The translations under genes and the position numbers were made by a program. DNA of 64,000 nucleotides from a virus, in the IMG/VR virus record IMGVR_UViG_3300038412_000061, positions 1 to 64,000 of that record, one strand, 5' to 3'. Under the pieces are notes generated by a model. That model saw only the letters and a program-made list of their open reading frames with translations, was not told the origin of the DNA and ran no database searches. Of this stretch, positions 1 through 63,685 are shown piece by piece (positions within the stretch are counted from its first letter, which is position 1; each line of letters begins with the position of its first letter).

Positions 1-9
1 CAGGTGGCA

Positions 10-70
10 TTTATCAAATCACCTGCCCCGACACACATCGCGTGCGCGCGATCCGGGGAAATGTTAGACT
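10..70 (+). promoter_or_regulatory. Cassette repeat/promoter copy 1
   Basis: (TTTATC)AAATCAC ending at 22, N14, ATCGCGTGCGCGCGAT 37-52, N12, TAGACT 65-70 preceded by TGn. Confidence 0.85.
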
Positions 71-114
71 GGTGACATGAAGGACAAGACATACCAAGCG
101 TGGGAGGAACTACA

Positions 115-234
115 ATGGACGAGCAGGGACTCATCGAAGCCCAGGACGAGAACCGGAGCAAGACTGCTGAGGAACTGGAAGAGGAGTCGCGTCGATTTCT
201 GACGGACCACTTCGTCTTCCTTCAGGTCGGTTGA
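115..234 (+). CDS. 39-aa acidic hypothetical protein (MDEQGLIEAQDENRSKTAEELEEESRRF...)
   Basis: GGAGG RBS before ATG115, TGA at 232-234; directly behind repeat copy 1; below the ORF-track cut-off. Confidence 0.65.
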   Translation: MDEQGLIEAQDENRSKTAEELEEESRRFLTDHFVFLQVG

Positions 235-248
235 GCCGGTGGGGGTGA

Positions 249-309
249 GTGATTGAATCACCACCCTCCCAGCGCATCGCGCGCGCGCGATACTCCCATC
301 TGTTAGACT
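249..309 (+). promoter_or_regulatory. Cassette repeat/promoter copy 2
   Basis: GTGATTGAATCAC 249-261, N14, ATCGCGCGCGCGCGAT 276-291, N12, TAGACT 304-309. Confidence 0.9.
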
Positions 310-330
310 GTGTGTAACCAAGGAGGAGAA

Positions 331-585
331 ATGACGATTATACGTTTTGACGAGTATTACGTATGCGGTGAGTGCGCCCAAGTAGTCTGTAACGGGCTGG
401 GGGGTATGGACCTAGACCCTGAGCGCGAGGAGGAGATTATCGAGGGTTTGGGCCAGATAGAAGGTCACTGGGCGCCGAATTGGGACAGTGAGACGGGCGA
501 GGGTATGCTCGAATTCTCGTGGCGTCAGTGCGACGGATGCGGTACGAATCTCGGAGGGGAACGCTTAAGGATGGCGATTGTCTAG
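331..585 (+). CDS. Acidic hypothetical protein with two CxxC pairs (probable Zn binder)
   Basis: AAGGAGGAG RBS before ATG331; CGEC and FSWRQCDGCG motifs. Confidence 0.8.
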   Translation: MTIIRFDEYYVCGECAQVVCNGLGGMDLDPEREEEIIEGLGQIEGHWAPNWDSETGEGMLEFSWRQCDGCGTNLGGERLRMAIV

Positions 586-595
586 CCGAGGGTGC

Positions 596-656
596 GTGAT
601 TGAATCACGCGCCACCGCGTGTATCGCGCGCGCGCGATTCGCCAACCTGCTACACT
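596..656 (+). promoter_or_regulatory. Cassette repeat/promoter copy 3
   Basis: GTGATTGAATCAC 596-608, N14, CG palindrome 623-638, N12, TACACT 651-656. Confidence 0.9.
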
Positions 657-685
657 GGGGGAGAACCACAACCAAAGGAGTAGCA

Positions 686-820
686 ATGGCAATCAGCCGA
701 GGAGAGCAAGAGCAGAACGAGCGAATTCATGAGAATTTGCAGTATGCGGATTGGGGGAGCATGACTTTCGATGACTTCGAGGAGATGTTCGAGGACCGCG
801 ACCCCCTGGAGTTCCTCTAA
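686..820 (+). CDS. 44-aa acidic hypothetical protein
   Basis: AACCAAAGGAG RBS before ATG686; 3' part of track ORF 578..820. Confidence 0.75.
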   Translation: MAISRGEQEQNERIHENLQYADWGSMTFDDFEEMFEDRDPLEFL

Positions 821-921
821 TGGAGAACGACATTCCGAACCCTCCCCTTACGGAGGTCGAGTTGGAGATTTTCTACGGACTTTGGGACATTTTCTACCAG
901 CACGACTACGAGGGGGAGTAG
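820..921 (+). CDS. 33-aa acidic peptide (MENDIPNPPLTEVELEIFYGLWDIFYQHDYEGE)
   Basis: TAATG overlap with upstream stop; ends exactly at the next repeat. Confidence 0.55.
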   Translation: MENDIPNPPLTEVELEIFYGLWDIFYQHDYEGE

Positions 922-978
922 TCGAATCCGGGGAACCGGACAGAATCGCGCGTGCGCGATAAGGGAATCTAGTACGCT
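918..978 (+). promoter_or_regulatory. Cassette repeat/promoter copy 4
   Basis: Degenerate box GTAGTCGAATCCG 918-930, N14, ATCGCGCGTGCGCGAT 945-960, N12, TACGCT 973-978. Confidence 0.8.
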
Positions 979-1006
979 GATGGGACAACCAAACGAAGGA
1001 GCAACA

Positions 1007-1312
1007 ATGTCAACATTCACCCCGGTACGTCGAGCGTCACTCAGTGACGTTCCCGACCTCATCACCACATTCACACCGTTTCAGACATCGTCAATGTCTG
1101 GTGAACTCCGCGCCCAAACGGAGACCTCCGCGCCCAGGTACTCAGTGCGTTCGTACCAAACGACAATCTTCGTGGTGGACATGAACCGCTACCGGTACTG
1201 GTTTGACCAGAGTTTCTACTCATCGACCACGTCACAACACCAAGCGCGAATTCGTCAGGCCGTCAGGGAACTGGAAGACCACGGTTACAAGATGGTCCCC
1301 AGGTTCGACTGA
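1007..1312 (+). CDS. Hypothetical phage early protein (Y-x-V-x-SY-x-T...YSxTTSxHQ motif family)
   Basis: AACCAAACGAAGGAG leader before ATG1007; motif recurrent in phage early regions. Confidence 0.8.
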   Translation: MSTFTPVRRASLSDVPDLITTFTPFQTSSMSGELRAQTETSAPRYSVRSYQTTIFVVDMNRYRYWFDQSFYSSTTSQHQARIRQAVRELEDHGYKMVPRFD

Positions 1313-1369
1313 ATGAATCCCCGGAAGGGGGTGCAATCGCGCGCGCGCGATCAGCACACCTGCTAGGCT
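1309..1369 (+). promoter_or_regulatory. Cassette repeat/promoter copy 5
   Basis: CTGAATGAATCCC 1309-1321, N14, CG palindrome 1336-1351, N12, TAGGCT 1364-1369. Confidence 0.85.
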
Positions 1370-1402
1370 GGTTGCAAGCAACCAAACGAAGGAGATTCAC
1401 TC

Positions 1403-1711
1403 ATGAACTACTGGCCCGAATTCACCGCCGATGAGACCACCATCACCCTGTCGGACCACCCGTTTTACGACCTGGGATATGCCATCTACGTGACCGCGCG
1501 TCACTTTGAGAACAAGGACGATGAGTACCCCGCCTCGTTCGCCACTCACACCTTCGTCTACGCCACTCCCGAGGCCGCCGAGTACGCCTACAATGGAGCG
1601 CAGTACGTTCGCTCCCTGTTCAGCGCGCTTGCTGATGACTCCCTCACCGCGTATGTCAGCATAGAGGCCCACTTGGACAAAATGCCATACCGGGTAGAAA
1701 TTCCCGAATAG
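1403..1711 (+). CDS. Acidic hypothetical protein
   Basis: AACCAAACGAAGGAG leader; 102-aa ORF. Confidence 0.8.
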   Translation: MNYWPEFTADETTITLSDHPFYDLGYAIYVTARHFENKDDEYPASFATHTFVYATPEAAEYAYNGAQYVRSLFSALADDSLTAYVSIEAHLDKMPYRVEIPE

Positions 1712-1716
1712 GGAAC

Positions 1717-1867
1717 TACATCGAATCACGGCCTAGCAAGCCGTTCGTGTGCGCGATAATCGGTTACAAATCAAATCACCGCTCCGGCAGTCCATCGCGC
1801 GCGCGCGATGTAGTCGGGAAGGGCGTATGATTGAATCACGAGCCAGCCGAGGATTCATGCGCGCGAT
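1717..1867 (+). repeat. Three tandem empty copies of the cassette repeat (no -10 box, no gene)
   Basis: AATCAC ends at 1729, 1779 and 1839, each followed after 14 nt by a CG palindrome or its remnant (1744-1757, 1794-1809, 1854-1867). Confidence 0.85.
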
Positions 1868-1879
1868 AGAGCTCGCCCT

Positions 1880-2048
1880 ATTTCCTACTTCGTCACTGGG
1901 AATAGTGGGGATCTTGGGGGTGGGATGATCATTTCCTACAAAGTCGATAGAAATTGTCGGGAATTGCGACGATCTACGGACATTTCCTACTAATTCACTA
2001 GGAATAGGGGACAATGATCATTCTCTACTAATTCACTAGGAATTGTGG
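1880..2048. repeat. Four imperfect ~30-bp direct repeats ATTTCCTAC...CACTAGGAAT
   Basis: Copies near 1880, 1931, 1982 and 2020; the last two share CTACTAATTCACTAGGAAT. Confidence 0.7.
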
Positions 2049-2205
2049 ACCGGGGGAGATTGTGGGCTAGGACACTGACCAGGCAGAATGCCACGAGAGA
2101 CCCCTAGAATGACCTCTAAGGCCTGCTAGCCAAAAAGCGGACCTAACCCCCACCCTGACAATTTGCGGGGATATTCCCTGGTCAGAAAGGGTGAGACAAA
2201 TTTCT

Positions 2206-2214
2206 TGTGGATAA
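2206..2214 (-). promoter_or_regulatory. Consensus DnaA box
   Basis: TGTGGATAA on + equals TTATCCACA on -; single copy in a non-coding region. Confidence 0.35.
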
Positions 2215-2448
2215 CTTGTGTATTTGTCATTGAAACGTTCAAACGTCGCGCGAACATGATATTGTGGTCATTGTAGTTGATGTACCCCGGATGGGTCCGG
2301 TTTGCTAACCCCTGCACCTTCACATACTGGGCGGTTCACCTAGGGATAGGTAGACATACCATGCGCGACCACGCGCGACCCACATAACGACCAAAAACGC
2401 ATTACAACGCATTTTTAATCAATCAACCAAACGAAGGAGATGTTTACT

Positions 2449-3360
2449 ATGTCAAGAACTACTAACCTAACCGCGTCAGGTGTACCCACGACCGGTATGG
2501 CCTGCTCGAATTCTGGCGCACCGAGTCAGGTCTACAATTGGCAGTTAGAGGTTGTGTCAGCGCTAGACCTCCTGGTGTCTGCCAGAGTGAAGGAATACTT
2601 CACTGCCGACCGTATCGGCGCGACAGATACGGAGGTTCAGCAATTGGCCCTACGTTCAATCACCGGTACGCAACCGCGCCAAGACCTTAAGGGGAAATTG
2701 GCCACCCAAGTTACTATGTGGACAATCGCCGGATTCAACGTTGGCACCAGTCGCGCGCCGGTCATCGAGTATCACCTCACCGACCTATCCGCCGACATCG
2801 TCCTATCATCCGGAGGCCACGACGGGCGCGAGACCATGGCCAGCGCGGTAATGAAGGTGTCTCACCCCTACGAAACGGTATCGGTGCCAGAACAAACGCG
2901 CTATTTGCTGGTTAACCGGGGCGAGACGACCGCAACGGAGTATCTAGTATCCACAGGTGGCGACGCGCAAGACACCATCAACCGTGCCATTGCCAACGGT
3001 CGGGTTAAGGTGCGCCTAGTGGAGACGATACCGGCCCACGAAGTTCCGCGACAGTATCACCTGACGACGCCTAGTGAAGCGCCAGGATACACCAGGACTT
3101 GCGGTTGTGACGCCAAGTCACGAGGTCCCCTTACACGCACCGCGACCCTGGCGAATGCCCACAAGGGCGAGGCCTCAAACGCCAAGGGTCTGGCCCATTT
3201 GGTGGCGCGCGACTTGCTTACCATGGTCGAGACTAGGCGTGACGTGTTCGCCGGTGGCGTGCTCGCCAAGACGGGCGCGTCATACCAACTACAGCACTCC
3301 CCGGACCAGCGCCTAGTGGAAGGTATCCGCGCCAAGTACCTAGTAGGCACCACGCGATAG
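2449..3360 (+). CDS. Hypothetical protein (303 aa), no recognisable domain
   Basis: Same AACCAAACGAAGGAG leader as the cassette genes; long ORF followed by a terminator. Confidence 0.85.
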   Translation: MSRTTNLTASGVPTTGMACSNSGAPSQVYNWQLEVVSALDLLVSARVKEYFTADRIGATDTEVQQLALRSITGTQPRQDLKGKLATQVTMWTIAGFNVGTSRAPVIEYHLTDLSADIVLSSGGHDGRETMASAVMKVSHPYETVSVPEQTRYLLVNRGETTATEYLVSTGGDAQDTINRAIANGRVKVRLVETIPAHEVPRQYHLTTPSEAPGYTRTCGCDAKSRGPLTRTATLANAHKGEASNAKGLAHLVARDLLTMVETRRDVFAGGVLAKTGASYQLQHSPDQRLVEGIRAKYLVGTTR

Positions 3361-3371
3361 GCCACGACGAC

Positions 3372-3418
3372 GCCCACCCCTACGGGGGTGGGCATTGTCG
3401 CGTTCGGGTGACTTTTTA
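3372..3418 (+). terminator. Intrinsic terminator-like hairpin
   Basis: GCCCACCCC-TACG-GGGGTGGGC, with a T run about 20 nt downstream. Confidence 0.65.
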
Positions 3419-3788
3419 TGCAGTCATGGGGGGGTGGTGTCAAAATGCTCATTTATTCACGCCAGCGATTAAAAAGCCGTATTTCGAGTTTGCGAAGGCG
3501 GTACCCACGAAGATCTGATCAGCTAAATGGGGTATATGAACCGATGTTCATTGGAATGCGCCTATCCATTCTGATCAATCACTCTAGAATCCACGCATCG
3601 GGGCCTACGTTGGCAGGAGAGACGAGCAAAAGTGAAATAGATGGGGAGTACTTGATTTGATCTTCAGAGGCTTAGAAGTCAAATTAGCGCGTCTACTACA
3701 CCCTCAAAACCCTGGAAGTCCAAAAAAATCGATACCTCCGGTGGCCCCCCCAAAAAATTTCAGGGACCAAAATTCCCCCTATATGTAC

Positions 3789-3817
3789 TTGACAAACCCG
3801 TTGGACTGTGCTATACT
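3789..3817 (+). promoter_or_regulatory. SigA/sigma70-type promoter
   Basis: TTGACA-17-TATACT with TGn extension. Confidence 0.85.
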
Positions 3818-3823
3818 GCAATC

Positions 3824-3998
3824 GTCAGGAACCCACGGCGACTTGCGAACCGCCTACGGGCTGTGTAACCACCATTTGGGAGGCACATAAGCGAGCTGGC
3901 AGGATAGTGGCGCGTTTTTGGGTGCGGTGTGACGGAACCCATACTTAGGGGTAGCTCCCCACAAACCCTTCATCATCGCAAGCGTTGGAGGGCGTCCC
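3824..3998 (+). ncRNA. Candidate structured ncRNA (~175 nt)
   Basis: Follows a consensus promoter, no credible ORF; 5' CGGCG(A)CTTGCGA pairs with 3' TCGCAAGCGTTG; internal hairpins. Confidence 0.6.
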
Positions 3999-4095
3999 TA
4001 TGATAACTTACGAATATTCGTGATCAGCGACATAATGCGCTAAATTGTGAATATGAGCAAGTTCGACAACAGCGCCCCGGAAGATTCGTATAGGG

Positions 4096-57357: not shown

Positions 57358-57632
57358 TGGCTAGAGACAAGCTTGACGAGACGCGGAAGGTACAAAAGCC
57401 TCCGCCCGATGACGTTCTGTCTGTGCAGAAGAAGCGCGAATGGCTGCCTTGGGAGCAAGGTGATGTCCCGTGCGAGATATGCGGCCTTCTGTGCCCACTC
57501 AACTGTTACGAAGGATTTGAGACCGTTCACATTACCTGCACCTACACGGTGAGTGGCAAGAGATGGGTCAAGGCACGCAATGCTGCGAAGAAGAAGGCCC
57601 TTCTAGCTAGCACCAAGCCCGAACTGTTCTGA
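57357..57632 (+). CDS. Hypothetical Cys-rich protein
   Basis: TAATG coupling. Confidence 0.6.
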   Translation: MARDKLDETRKVQKPPPDDVLSVQKKREWLPWEQGDVPCEICGLLCPLNCYEGFETVHITCTYTVSGKRWVKARNAAKKKALLASTKPELF

Positions 57633-57962
57633 GCACAGGAGTTCTTCGAACGCATCATCAGGGTCAGTACCCTCCGAGATCCACACTGCCCGGTCGTCGG
57701 GACGGCTTCCCCACACTCCTTGGTCGTCTTTGTTCTCCAGAGCAAACGTGAAGCACTCCCTGCGCACTGGGCATCTTTTGCAAATGTCGAGTCCCCTCTG
57801 CATGTACGCAGCTTGCCCCTGCCCTGGGAAGAAGAACTCTTGAGGCTCGCCAATACACAGAGCGTCGTGGACCCATGGCGGACGCTGACGTTGTAGCATG
57901 GATATGAACTGAGCTATCTCCCAGTCAGAAAACGAAATGACTGGATGTTCCCTACTTGTCAC
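57603..57962 (-). CDS. whiB: WhiB-family transcription factor
   Basis: W..ALC...FFP...ICKRCPVRREC..AL...GVWG; probable GTG start at 57962. Confidence 0.92.
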   Translation of the reverse strand: MTSREHPVISFSDWEIAQFISMLQRQRPPWVHDALCIGEPQEFFFPGQGQAAYMQRGLDICKRCPVRRECFTFALENKDDQGVWGSRPDDRAVWISEGTDPDDAFEELLCSEQFGLGAS

Positions 57963-58113
57963 GCAGCCCCAATTCGTTGTAAATGTGGAGGTGCGCAGAC
58001 GCATGGGCCATAGGACTATTGTCCTCAACACCAAGGTTCGATCCACAGGAGCACTTTACTCTGAGCTTGCCCTTTTCGGGAGTGATTTCTACGTAATGCG
58101 TGGTATTGCTCAT
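57952..58113 (-). CDS. Small Zn-finger-like protein (CSCG...H..H)
   Basis: Start MSNTTH overlapping upstream stop. Confidence 0.55.
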   Translation of the reverse strand: MSNTTHYVEITPEKGKLRVKCSCGSNLGVEDNSPMAHASAHLHIYNELGLRDK

Positions 58114-58538
58114 TTCACAAATCCCTTTTCTTTCGCCTCTTGATCTCTGATAGTAATCAGTGTGTGGCACGAACGGCACACAGCACGAAAGTTTGAGTCG
58201 TCGTCCCCAACTGGGACAAGGGCGCCCCCTTGCGAGCGCAACTTTATCTCGTCTACGTCCACTGACTCTCCACCGCACCCACGTAGCCTAGCTTCGCAGG
58301 TCGGATGTTCGCTCAGGAACTTTACGACAAAGGGGATTCTTTCCTCTTCATAAAACTTAGCCATCTTCTCTGACCGGGCTCGGATCTTCTTACGGGATCT
58401 GAGCCCGGTCTTGGCTTTAGAGAGGCCCGAGGTACTGTTCGAGCTGCTCTTGGTAAATGGTGTTCGCGCGAGCGAGACGTGCGATTTCAAGGTCCCTTTT
58501 TTCAATTTGGTGCTCCGCCTCGAATAGCTGCATCTCAA
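58110..58538 (-). CDS. HNH endonuclease-like protein (start uncertain)
   Basis: CEARL.GC..SVDVDE..RSQGG..NFRAVCRSCH. Confidence 0.8.
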   Translation of the reverse strand: MRCSYSRRSTKLKKGTLKSHVSLARTPFTKSSSNSTSGLSKAKTGLRSRKKIRARSEKMAKFYEEERIPFVVKFLSEHPTCEARLRGCGGESVDVDEIKLRSQGGALVPVGDDDSNFRAVCRSCHTLITIRDQEAKEKGFVK

Positions 58539-63189: not shown

Positions 63190-63461
63190 TCCTCCACTAA
63201 TTCGTATGTTGCTGCGAATATTTCTGGCTTACAGGGGTAGAACTCTCCAGCCACCCCCCTGATAACGAAGTCACCTGGCTGGACGGTCATGTCTCCCTCC
63301 AGGGTAGGTATGACCATGGAGACAAAGTCACATGTTGACATCCCGAGGGGGTAAAGCTTTCCCGTTTCCATCCAGCAAGTAATTCTTCCCACGTCAGTTG
63401 ACGATCCGTTGAATTTGACAGCCTCTACCTCTACGGGTCTCTTACGGTACTTAGCCATCAC
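63180..63461 (-). CDS. Conserved phage protein, YRKKPV/PGDYG-like family (paralog of 7243..7539)
   Basis: KYRKRPVEVEA..TLEGDM..PGDFVIRGVAGEFYPCKPEIF. Confidence 0.85.
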   Translation of the reverse strand: MMAKYRKRPVEVEAVKFNGSSTDVGRITCWMETGKLYPLGMSTCDFVSMVIPTLEGDMTVQPGDFVIRGVAGEFYPCKPEIFAATYELVEEWN

Positions 63462-63685
63462 TTCCCTTTCTTTGCCAACCGGATGCTGCGAGCAACATTC
63501 TCTACCAGGGTGATTTTACCACTGTCGTGTAACACCGCGCAAGTCGAGTGGACGTTCCCGAGTGAAATACCGGTCATCTGCTGCAAGTCCCTGTAGGAGG
63601 GGCCATGGTCAAATTCCTTGTACCACTGCTTGATGGCGGCGAGCACAGCCTTTTCATTGTCCTGCCTACGGTCGATAACCGTCAC
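63458..63685 (-). CDS. Stand-alone LexA-type winged-HTH DNA-binding protein
   Basis: GPSYRDL..TGIS..VH..L..SGKI..ARSIRL; no peptidase domain. Confidence 0.8.
   Translation of the reverse strand: MTVIDRRQDNEKAVLAAIKQWYKEFDHGPSYRDLQQMTGISLGNVHSTCAVLHDSGKITLVENVARSIRLAKKGK

Follow-up and report, generated by a model that had tools for sequence, protein, structure and literature searches.

The 64,000-nt stretch analyzed here (positions 1 to 64,000 of the virus record IMGVR_UViG_3300038412_000061, hereafter the window) opens inside a long array of small genes separated by a repeated intergenic element, whose hallmark is a 16-bp CG palindrome (ATCGCGCGYGCGCGAT) held at a fixed distance from a promoter -10 hexamer. 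From a comparison of these units within the phage and its relatives, we think it fairly probable that each repeat is a composite attenuator, operator and promoter cassette, serving to insulate a single small gene unit of early type. The order within a unit is the upstream stop codon, a [GA]AATC box (box A) with a variable hairpin, a 13-15 nt spacer, the palindrome, exactly 12 nt, and an extended -10 element (TGnTAnnnT), after which come a conserved A 7 nt on and then either a ribosome-binding site or a leaderless ATG. The initial annotation of the window had placed the array at 10-1867. It is real there, but its extent was understated, as it actually runs from position 83,284 of the 95,949-bp IMG/VR record, of which the window is the first 64 kb, through the junction of the record ends to position 1,867, about 14.3 kb in all. 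It holds 26 promoter-bearing units and four without a promoter (one at 91,570 and three at 1723-1867), and the eight copies in the window are the tail end of this ~30-copy array.

The ends of the record are redundant, with window positions 1-247 matching record positions 95,703-95,949 except for one mismatch (G/A at window position 128) that suggests population heterogeneity. It follows from this 247-bp terminal repeat that the map is a circle of about 95.7 kb opened within the array; IMG/VR labels the record linear, but its map is circular or terminally redundant. The phage is uncultured and comes from a mine-drainage sample, and its host is probably actinobacterial, given the leaderless genes and the presence of a WhiB gene (PF02467). 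It is a myovirus whose large terminase shares 32% identity with Arthrobacter phages, there is no close cultured phage, and a megablast search of window positions 1-4000 against phage records returned no match.

A motif scan of metagenome contigs recovered 18 loci (L numbers below) with 102 further units of the same layout. Among viral contigs, a strict motif scan gave no match, and a loose scan found only a close relative, G001, and a chance in-gene match (L013). In a palindrome-anchored alignment of 109 distinct units from the phage and its relatives, a T-rich stop-codon region, TRATY, precedes box A, and the palindrome takes the form ATCGCGCGCGCGCGAT, followed by 12 nt of free sequence ending in TGn, the TAnnnT hexamer and a G-rich stretch. 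Box A lies 14 nt from the palindrome in 76 units, 13 nt in 24 and 15 nt in 15. In its longer form, [GA]AATC[AC]C, the box is strand-specific: of its copies in the genome, 28 of 33 on the plus strand but 0 of 19 on the minus strand fall inside the array. This part of the unit had been described as a 13-bp inverted repeat. The full repeat (GTGATTGAATCAC) occurs in only three of the window copies, and it is the strand-specific box that is conserved in every one; a CRP/FNR-like reading of the repeat was dropped on the same count and for its wrong spacing. Six palindromes with at most one mismatch lie within 1.9 kb (37-1809), against 0.25 expected in the whole window, so that a chance origin is excluded, and a pattern search found no comparable cluster elsewhere in the 64 kb.

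The distance from palindrome to -10 was counted without presupposing a spacing, for 121 palindromes from this phage and its relatives. TGnTAnnnT was found at exactly 12 nt in 98 of them and TAnnnT without the TG in 9 more; a single palindrome had its -10 at 13 nt, and about a dozen had none. The 12 spacer bases are themselves variable while their number is fixed. The seventh base past the -10 is an A in 90 of 109 units, and in 18 of 108 units, representing six gene families, an ATG stands exactly at the predicted start and opens an open reading frame (ORF) of 41-142 codons, where well under one leaderless ORF at this fixed offset is expected by chance. The extended -10 (TGn) is present in 92% of the unit promoters. 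The palindrome spans about -40 to -25 (center near -32.5) and, as the initial annotation had it, covers the -35 position, which is filled by its GCGCGC and matches TTGACA at no more than one of six bases. Promoters outside the array are, again as first described, of the TTGACA type: eleven perfect TTGAC[AT]-17-TGnTAnnnT sites are found elsewhere in the genome, including those at window positions 3789, 4096, 13595(-), 15832(-), 18538(-) and 61547(-) and at record positions 72006(-), 77565, 81276 and 83270(-), and they precede tRNAs, small RNAs and recombination and replication operons. The two classes have a common -10 and nothing in common upstream. The TTGAC[AT] site at 83270(-) and the first array unit are arranged back to back. 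The invariant palindrome-to-(-10) distance, the TG at -15/-14, the A 7 nt past the -10 and the 18 leaderless ORFs support, in silico, the proposal that the array units form a dedicated promoter class, in which each unit has its own -10 and ribosome-binding site.

Searches beyond phage sequences returned nothing comparable. The palindrome in register with a -10 had no match in 185,579 prokaryote genomes, and box A combined with the palindrome gave 68 single matches across unrelated phyla, a chance-level result with no multi-copy genome. A host regulon or a prophage origin is therefore unlikely and was rejected; the layout does not recur as a repeated element among these genomes. No Rfam family was detected in window positions 1-2600, and string searches of the literature for the palindrome brought up Z-DNA oligonucleotide work and unrelated papers only.

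In 81 of 109 units the segment between box A and the palindrome reaches a folding energy of -5 kcal/mol or lower, compared with 35% of shuffles. Of 99 loops, 41 have the GNRA tetraloop form when read on the transcribed strand. The stems covary (CCCC/GGGG, CCGC/GCGG, CCTC/GAGG, CCTGC/GCGGG, CACGGG/CCCGT). In some units, including units 2, 3 and 8 of the window, the stem encloses box A, and this is the variant that appears as the 13-bp repeat. As no U-tract follows, the hairpin is read as a putative attenuator or RNA-end stabilizer.

In the model that we prefer, the upstream gene would stop at or just before the [GA]AATC box, and the variable GC hairpin, often GNRA-looped, would attenuate read-through or stabilize the RNA end. 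Host sigma-A polymerase would start 7 nt past the extended -10, onto a leader with a ribosome-binding site or onto a leaderless ATG, a step for which the sequence support is strong, and may use the extended -10 unaided. The palindrome is most likely read by a dimeric regulator and is the predicted site through which this protein would control all 26 promoters together. The promoters would fire unaided at once after infection, and a phage protein made from a TTGACA operon would later bind the palindromes and shut the array off; bound at the terminal promoter-less copies, the same regulator may block read-through there. Shut-off is tentatively favored over activation of the T4 MotA kind, and the perfect dyad, its center near -32.5, the 92% of promoters with TGn and the anti-restriction cargo described below all count for repression.

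For the identity of the regulator, Pfam or PHROGs scans of about 70 proteins yielded only a WhiB-like protein (57603-58046; PF02467, 56 bits), one winged-helix protein of 75 aa (63458-63685; phrog_3502, 1e-8) and an HNH nuclease. The winged-helix protein is a candidate for the shut-off function; a PDB sequence search with it gave nothing useful. The WhiB-like protein has an acidic C-terminus and no DNA-binding tail. Both genes belong to leftward operons with TTGACA promoters, with the WhiB gene at the end of its operon, and both are kept in the nearest relative, G001. No match to sigma region 2 or 4, HTH_3 or HTH_17 was found in the whole record, and no MotA or AsiA homolog was recognized in the Pfam and PHROGs scans. 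The small HNH endonuclease gene (58110-58505, minus strand; phrog_144, 1.8e-7) adjoins the WhiB-like gene.

Several observations weigh against the composite model with shut-off. About one fifth of the units have no hairpin directly past box A, and no U-tract follows the hairpins, so that true termination is doubtful. The winged-helix candidate is weak by other measures, scoring 18.4 bits against Pfam HTH_24, below the cut-off, and E = 0.003 against phrog_362, annotated as 'transcriptional repressor'. The half of the palindrome next to the promoter (positions 10-16, GCGCGAT) hardly varies, and the distal half does (positions 1, 4, 5, 6 and 7). Together with the strict 12-nt spacing, this asymmetric conservation suits an activator in contact with polymerase at least as well as a plain repressor.

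The asymmetry bears on an alternative that we regard as possible but clearly less probable, namely that the array promoters are activator-dependent and of the sigma-appropriation type. A phage activator on the palindrome, above all on its invariant half GCGCGCGAT, would then replace sigma region 4 at the -35 position, a WhiB-like protein may act in an AsiA-like manner, and the array would be a delayed class turned on after the TTGACA-class genes. Members of the WhiB family bind sigma-A region 4, and here the WhiB gene ends a TTGACA-driven operon and is retained in G001. Stronger conservation on the polymerase side of the palindrome, two promoter classes with a common -10, and a phage without a sigma factor of its own are also consistent with such an arrangement, and the exact 12-nt spacing matches that in T4, where 12 +/- 1 bp separate the MotA box from the -10 (PMC2988021). 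MotA acts as a monomer on an asymmetric box, however, whereas the site here is a perfect dyad. Extended -10 promoters need no -35 contact, and most array promoters are of this kind; the anti-restriction gene argues for immediate expression, promoter-less copies are kept at the array end, and the acidic, tail-less C-terminus of the WhiB protein also speaks against this role. A more specific form, an actinobacterial counterpart of sigma appropriation in which a phage factor, possibly with WhiB, redirects polymerase from TTGACA to palindrome promoters, appears rather unlikely; if true, it would amount to a private promoter code for this phage clade, with about 26 genes switching together.

The pattern of substitutions within the palindrome also bears on whether any dedicated protein is needed. 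Changes in the CG core are almost all transitions, with 10 of 12 transition types seen compared with 4 of 24 transversion types, and they thereby keep the purine/pyrimidine alternation. With no dedicated protein involved, the palindrome could be pictured as the second RNA hairpin (AUCGCG-CGCG-CGCGAU) of a two-hairpin terminator, or as a (CG)6 Z-DNA or cruciform sensor of supercoiling, which we consider improbable. As RNA each unit does fold into two tandem hairpins, promoter-less copies and copies shortened by a CG step persist at the array end, and Z-DNA oligonucleotide work is what the literature search for the palindrome string brought up. The right arm is invariant, however, while the left arm takes A-C mismatches, and the unit alignment contains no compensatory change between the arms, so that selection for an RNA hairpin in the palindrome is not supported. 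Neither a hairpin nor Z-DNA would need the invariant flanking GAT or the exact 12-nt register, no U-tract follows, and the transition bias could be simple CpG deamination. Palindrome variants are also homogenized within genomes: the T9 variant is dominant in this genome only, and T5 is dominant in the first half of the array of a relative, which indicates gene conversion among units or co-evolution with the reader.

Within the window, all eight copies are found where the initial annotation had placed them, each with box A exactly 14 nt before the palindrome, and in the first five a TAnnnT hexamer starts exactly 12 nt past it, followed by a ribosome-binding site and one or two small ORFs. All are on the plus strand. 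Unit 1 (16-70) has box A AAATCAC at 16-22, a 14-nt spacer, palindrome ATCGCGTGCGCGCGAT at 37-52, TG at 62-63, -10 TAGACT at 65-70 and a predicted start at A77, and an identical copy lies at record 95,718-95,772. Its cassette, W1 (77-234), comprises a leaderless ORF (77-202, with ATG 6 nt past the -10) and an ORF with its own ribosome-binding site (115-234). In relatives W1 is a single leaderless ORF of about 51 codons (MKDLTYQAWE...). Its N-terminal stretch (77-202) and its conserved C-terminal stretch (115-234, with a GGGAGG site) are out of frame with each other in this phage and in L027, which reflects either a frameshift or the replacement of a leaderless start by one at a ribosome-binding site. 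Unit 2 (249-309) has hairpin GTGATTGAATCAC at 249-261, box A at 255-261 and, 14 nt on, the palindrome at 276-291, with TG at 301-302, -10 TAGACT at 304-309 and predicted start A316; it precedes W2 (331-585), an 84-aa Cys-rich ORFan, that is, a protein without a family match. Unit 3 (596-656) is similarly built, with its hairpin at 596-608, box A at 602-608, 14 nt, palindrome at 623-638, TG at 648-649, -10 TACACT at 651-656 and a predicted start at about 663, and precedes the two tiny ORFs (686-820 and 820-921) of W3 (686-921).

In units 4 and 5 box A leads into the hairpin. Unit 4 (924-978) has box A GAATCCG (924-930), hairpin CCGGggaaCCGG, palindrome ATCGCGCGTGCGCGAT (945-960) and a -10 without TG, TACGCT (973-978), with predicted start A985, and serves W4 (1007-1312), a 101-aa ORFan. 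Unit 5 (1315-1369) has box A GAATCCC (1315-1321), hairpin CCCCGgaaGGGGG, palindrome at 1336-1351, TG at 1361-1362, -10 TAGGCT (1364-1369) and predicted start A1376, and serves W5 (1403-1711), a 102-aa ORFan. The last three units have no promoter, and in two of them the palindrome is shortened, as had been noted. Unit 6 (1723-1757) has box A at 1723-1729 and, 14 nt on, a 14-mer one CG step short (TTCGTGTGCGCGAT, 1744-1757). Unit 7 (1773-1809) has box A AAATCAC at 1773-1779, 14 nt and a perfect palindrome at 1794-1809 with no -10 at +12. Unit 8 (1827-1867), the last of the array, has hairpin ATGATTGAATCAC at 1827-1839, box A at 1833-1839, 14 nt and the shortened palindrome TTCATGCGCGCGAT at 1854-1867. 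Promoter-less and shortened copies also terminate the arrays of relatives (L025, L027, L017, L019 and L020). Tandem units without a gene between them occur at record 91,570-91,650, L019 746-816 and L025 1919-1990, where the -10 region of the first unit merges into the next box A; they resemble empty cassettes, such as unit-to-unit deletions would leave behind.

Comparison with relatives supports whole-cassette exchange at the units, and the earlier view that the genes are exchangeable cassettes stands: an identical gene order without repeat-bounded insertions or deletions was not what the relatives displayed. When gene bodies between units were clustered, their order was partly conserved, with gains, losses and transpositions bounded by units, including within 10-1867. 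L027 is 93% identical to window positions 98-234 and runs from W1 through one unit to a W4 homolog and the array end, without W2, W3 and W5; W2 plus W3 (276-945) and W5 (1336-1711) are therefore unit-bounded insertions relative to L027. W2 homologs occupy a different array position in L017, L025, L026 and L032, a W3a homolog precedes W1 in L019, and W4 is kept as the last or near-last array gene in relatives (86% aa identity in L027). W5 has no homolog in related contigs. A 275-bp one-gene unit of L019 is absent from L025, with the junction in the shared palindrome ATCGTGCGCGCGCGAT-GAAA. Of 370 internal homology ends, 190 lie within 60 bp of a palindrome, compared with 17% expected, a count that tells less in favor of exchange at units than it seems, since it is inflated by overlapping contigs and by alignments running into shared palindromes, and the events are not independent. 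The positions of the junctions are spread over the unit and not gathered at one point.

The nearest viral contig, G001 (capsid 89% identical; record IMGVR_UViG_3300050120_000115, 88,953 bp, rated 100% complete; L011 19680-19953, L012 1-400), was unusable for the comparison of cassette order, as it is broken at the array: the contig breaks off 250 bp past its first unit and resumes within the gene on the far side of the array. Its array is lost to assembly, broken by the repeated units, with roughly 7-14 kb missing. Among sequencing runs, one DNA run, which may be the source, and no RNA run was listed as carrying the sequence; in the contigs of this DNA run, breaks and loose ends were likewise seen at units, along with one back-joint with 260 unplaced letters. 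A circle reading of this joint was set aside and the joint taken as repeat ambiguity, and no usable circle joints were seen in that run.

How the units are exchanged is a separate matter, on which the initial annotation had suggested dedicated recombination sites. Palindromic repeats do bound the genes, and cassette content and order vary among relatives, much as expected of an integron-like or other site-specific system acting through a dedicated recombinase. Such a system is nevertheless very improbable. The whole record, rated 100% complete, contains no tyrosine (PF00589) or serine (PF00239) recombinase and no integrase or resolvase, the junctions are dispersed along the unit, and a general recombination pair is present in the form of Erf-like and RecE-like genes. 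An integron array in the strict sense was rejected for want of an IntI-type tyrosine recombinase and because the cassettes carry their own -10 and ribosome-binding site and do not rely on one common promoter. In the absence of an integrase or resolvase, homologous recombination is the likely route, and the units are best read as patches of homology and not as dedicated recombination sites. Erf/RecE-type recombination may thus delete, insert and move whole units without breaking expression, since a core of about 55 bp flanks every unit; the rearrangements themselves are seen in the comparison of arrays.

Two further repeated sequences occur in and beside the array. An identical 15-base leader, AACCAAACGAAGGAG, is found at window positions 987, 1380 and 2425, each time ahead of a start codon, one of them that of the gene at 2449, which has no palindrome unit, and looser forms (CAACCAA..GGAG) precede seven further array genes, all on the plus strand. 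Right after the last unit, four copies of an inverted repeat of about 24 bp, ATTTCCTAC-N8-TAGGAAT, lie within 1880-2043 (starts at 1880, 1931, 1982 and 2020; spacing 51, 51 and 38), and some 400 bp without coding sequence then separate them from the gene at 2449. These repeats also come after the array end in L025, L027, L017, L019 and L020. By their appearance they may be iterons, or operators for another dimeric protein distinct from the first, and the region is possibly an origin or control region.

Nearly all cassette proteins are ORFans without a family match in Pfam or PHROGs. An ArdA-like anti-restriction protein is encoded by the cassette at record 93,310-93,681 (L006 13310-13681), with a match to phrog_2059 (E = 1.9e-9) and a Pfam ArdA score of 24.2 bits, under the cut-off of 27. 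ORFans together with ArdA-like cargo fit an early host-takeover or anti-defence block. The identity of the dyad reader would show how such phages time their host-takeover and anti-defence genes, and its discovery could also lead to a tightly switchable promoter for actinobacteria. The units offer an unusually clean promoter class for study: over 100 natural variants in this phage and its relatives keep the 16-bp dyad and the extended -10 in strict register, and a consensus class with the same -10 exists in the same genome. A practical lesson is that assemblies break at the units, to the point that a relative rated 100% complete has no array.

Among known systems, the repeats of Cluster A and Cluster K mycobacteriophages share with the array the recurrence of a single regulatory word throughout a block of phage genes. 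The stoperators of Cluster A are asymmetric 13-14-bp sites of an immunity repressor in temperate phages, the start-associated sequences (SAS) of Cluster K lie at the ribosome-binding site, and neither the stoperators nor the SAS and extended SAS (ESAS) stand in fixed register to a -10. The likeness to Cluster K that the initial annotation had drawn does not hold, as those motifs are at the start codon and the palindrome is at -35. A stoperator array was rejected in view of the perfect dyad and of a record with no integrase and no HTH_3 or HTH_17 repressor. Both kinds of repeat are also described along with the Cluster EG phages (PMC7302621). Closer in form are the 17-bp dyad TGTTCGGNNNCCGAACA of Cluster O (PMC4351075) and the 18-bp dyad GATCAACCNNGGTTGATC of Cluster EG (PMC7302621), each present, like the palindrome here, in tens of copies in the intergenic gaps of lytic-looking actinophages and presumed to be bound by a dimeric protein. 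Most Cluster O sites are away from promoters, and the sites are not involved in rearrangements (PMC4351075), and Cluster EG sites lie 14-22 bp before start codons (PMC7302621), whereas the array palindrome is tied to a promoter at its -35 position and coincides with rearrangement junctions.

In promoter architecture the array resembles the T4 middle promoters, at which a MotA box, with AsiA, appropriates sigma and lies 12 +/- 1 bp from the -10 (PMC2988021). In both, an element particular to the phage stands where the -35 would be, ahead of a host -10 that often carries TGn; here the distance is 12 nt in 107 of 121 palindromes. In both, too, a consensus -35/-10 class coexists in the genome. The element differs, being a perfect 16-bp dyad in the array and a 9-bp asymmetric box in T4.

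The closest known system is the promoter-early stem-loop (PeSL) cassettes of T4-type phages (Arbiol et al., 2010, PMC2839356; Comeau et al., 2014, PMC4122927). As in PeSLs, an intergenic GC stem-loop, a host-type early promoter and a ribosome-binding site lie between one stop and the next start, with the stem-loop upstream of the promoter (here in about three quarters of units), and many copies separate the small ORFan genes of a plastic region. Relatives likewise differ by whole units with crossovers within the element, and there is no dedicated recombinase. PeSLs are further marked by mini-circles that arise through recombination between flanking elements, and by measured promoter and terminator activity. 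Unlike PeSLs, the array has a 16-bp CG palindrome in strict register in place of the -35 box and AT-rich upstream region, an additional conserved [GA]AATC box, and one contiguous 14-kb block where PeSLs occupy several hyperplastic regions, and it belongs to an unrelated phage lineage with a probably actinobacterial host. On this comparison the array appears to embody the PeSL principle in that lineage, and would extend the use of promoter and stem-loop units that both insulate small genes and act as crossover points beyond the T4-type phages of Gram-negative hosts.

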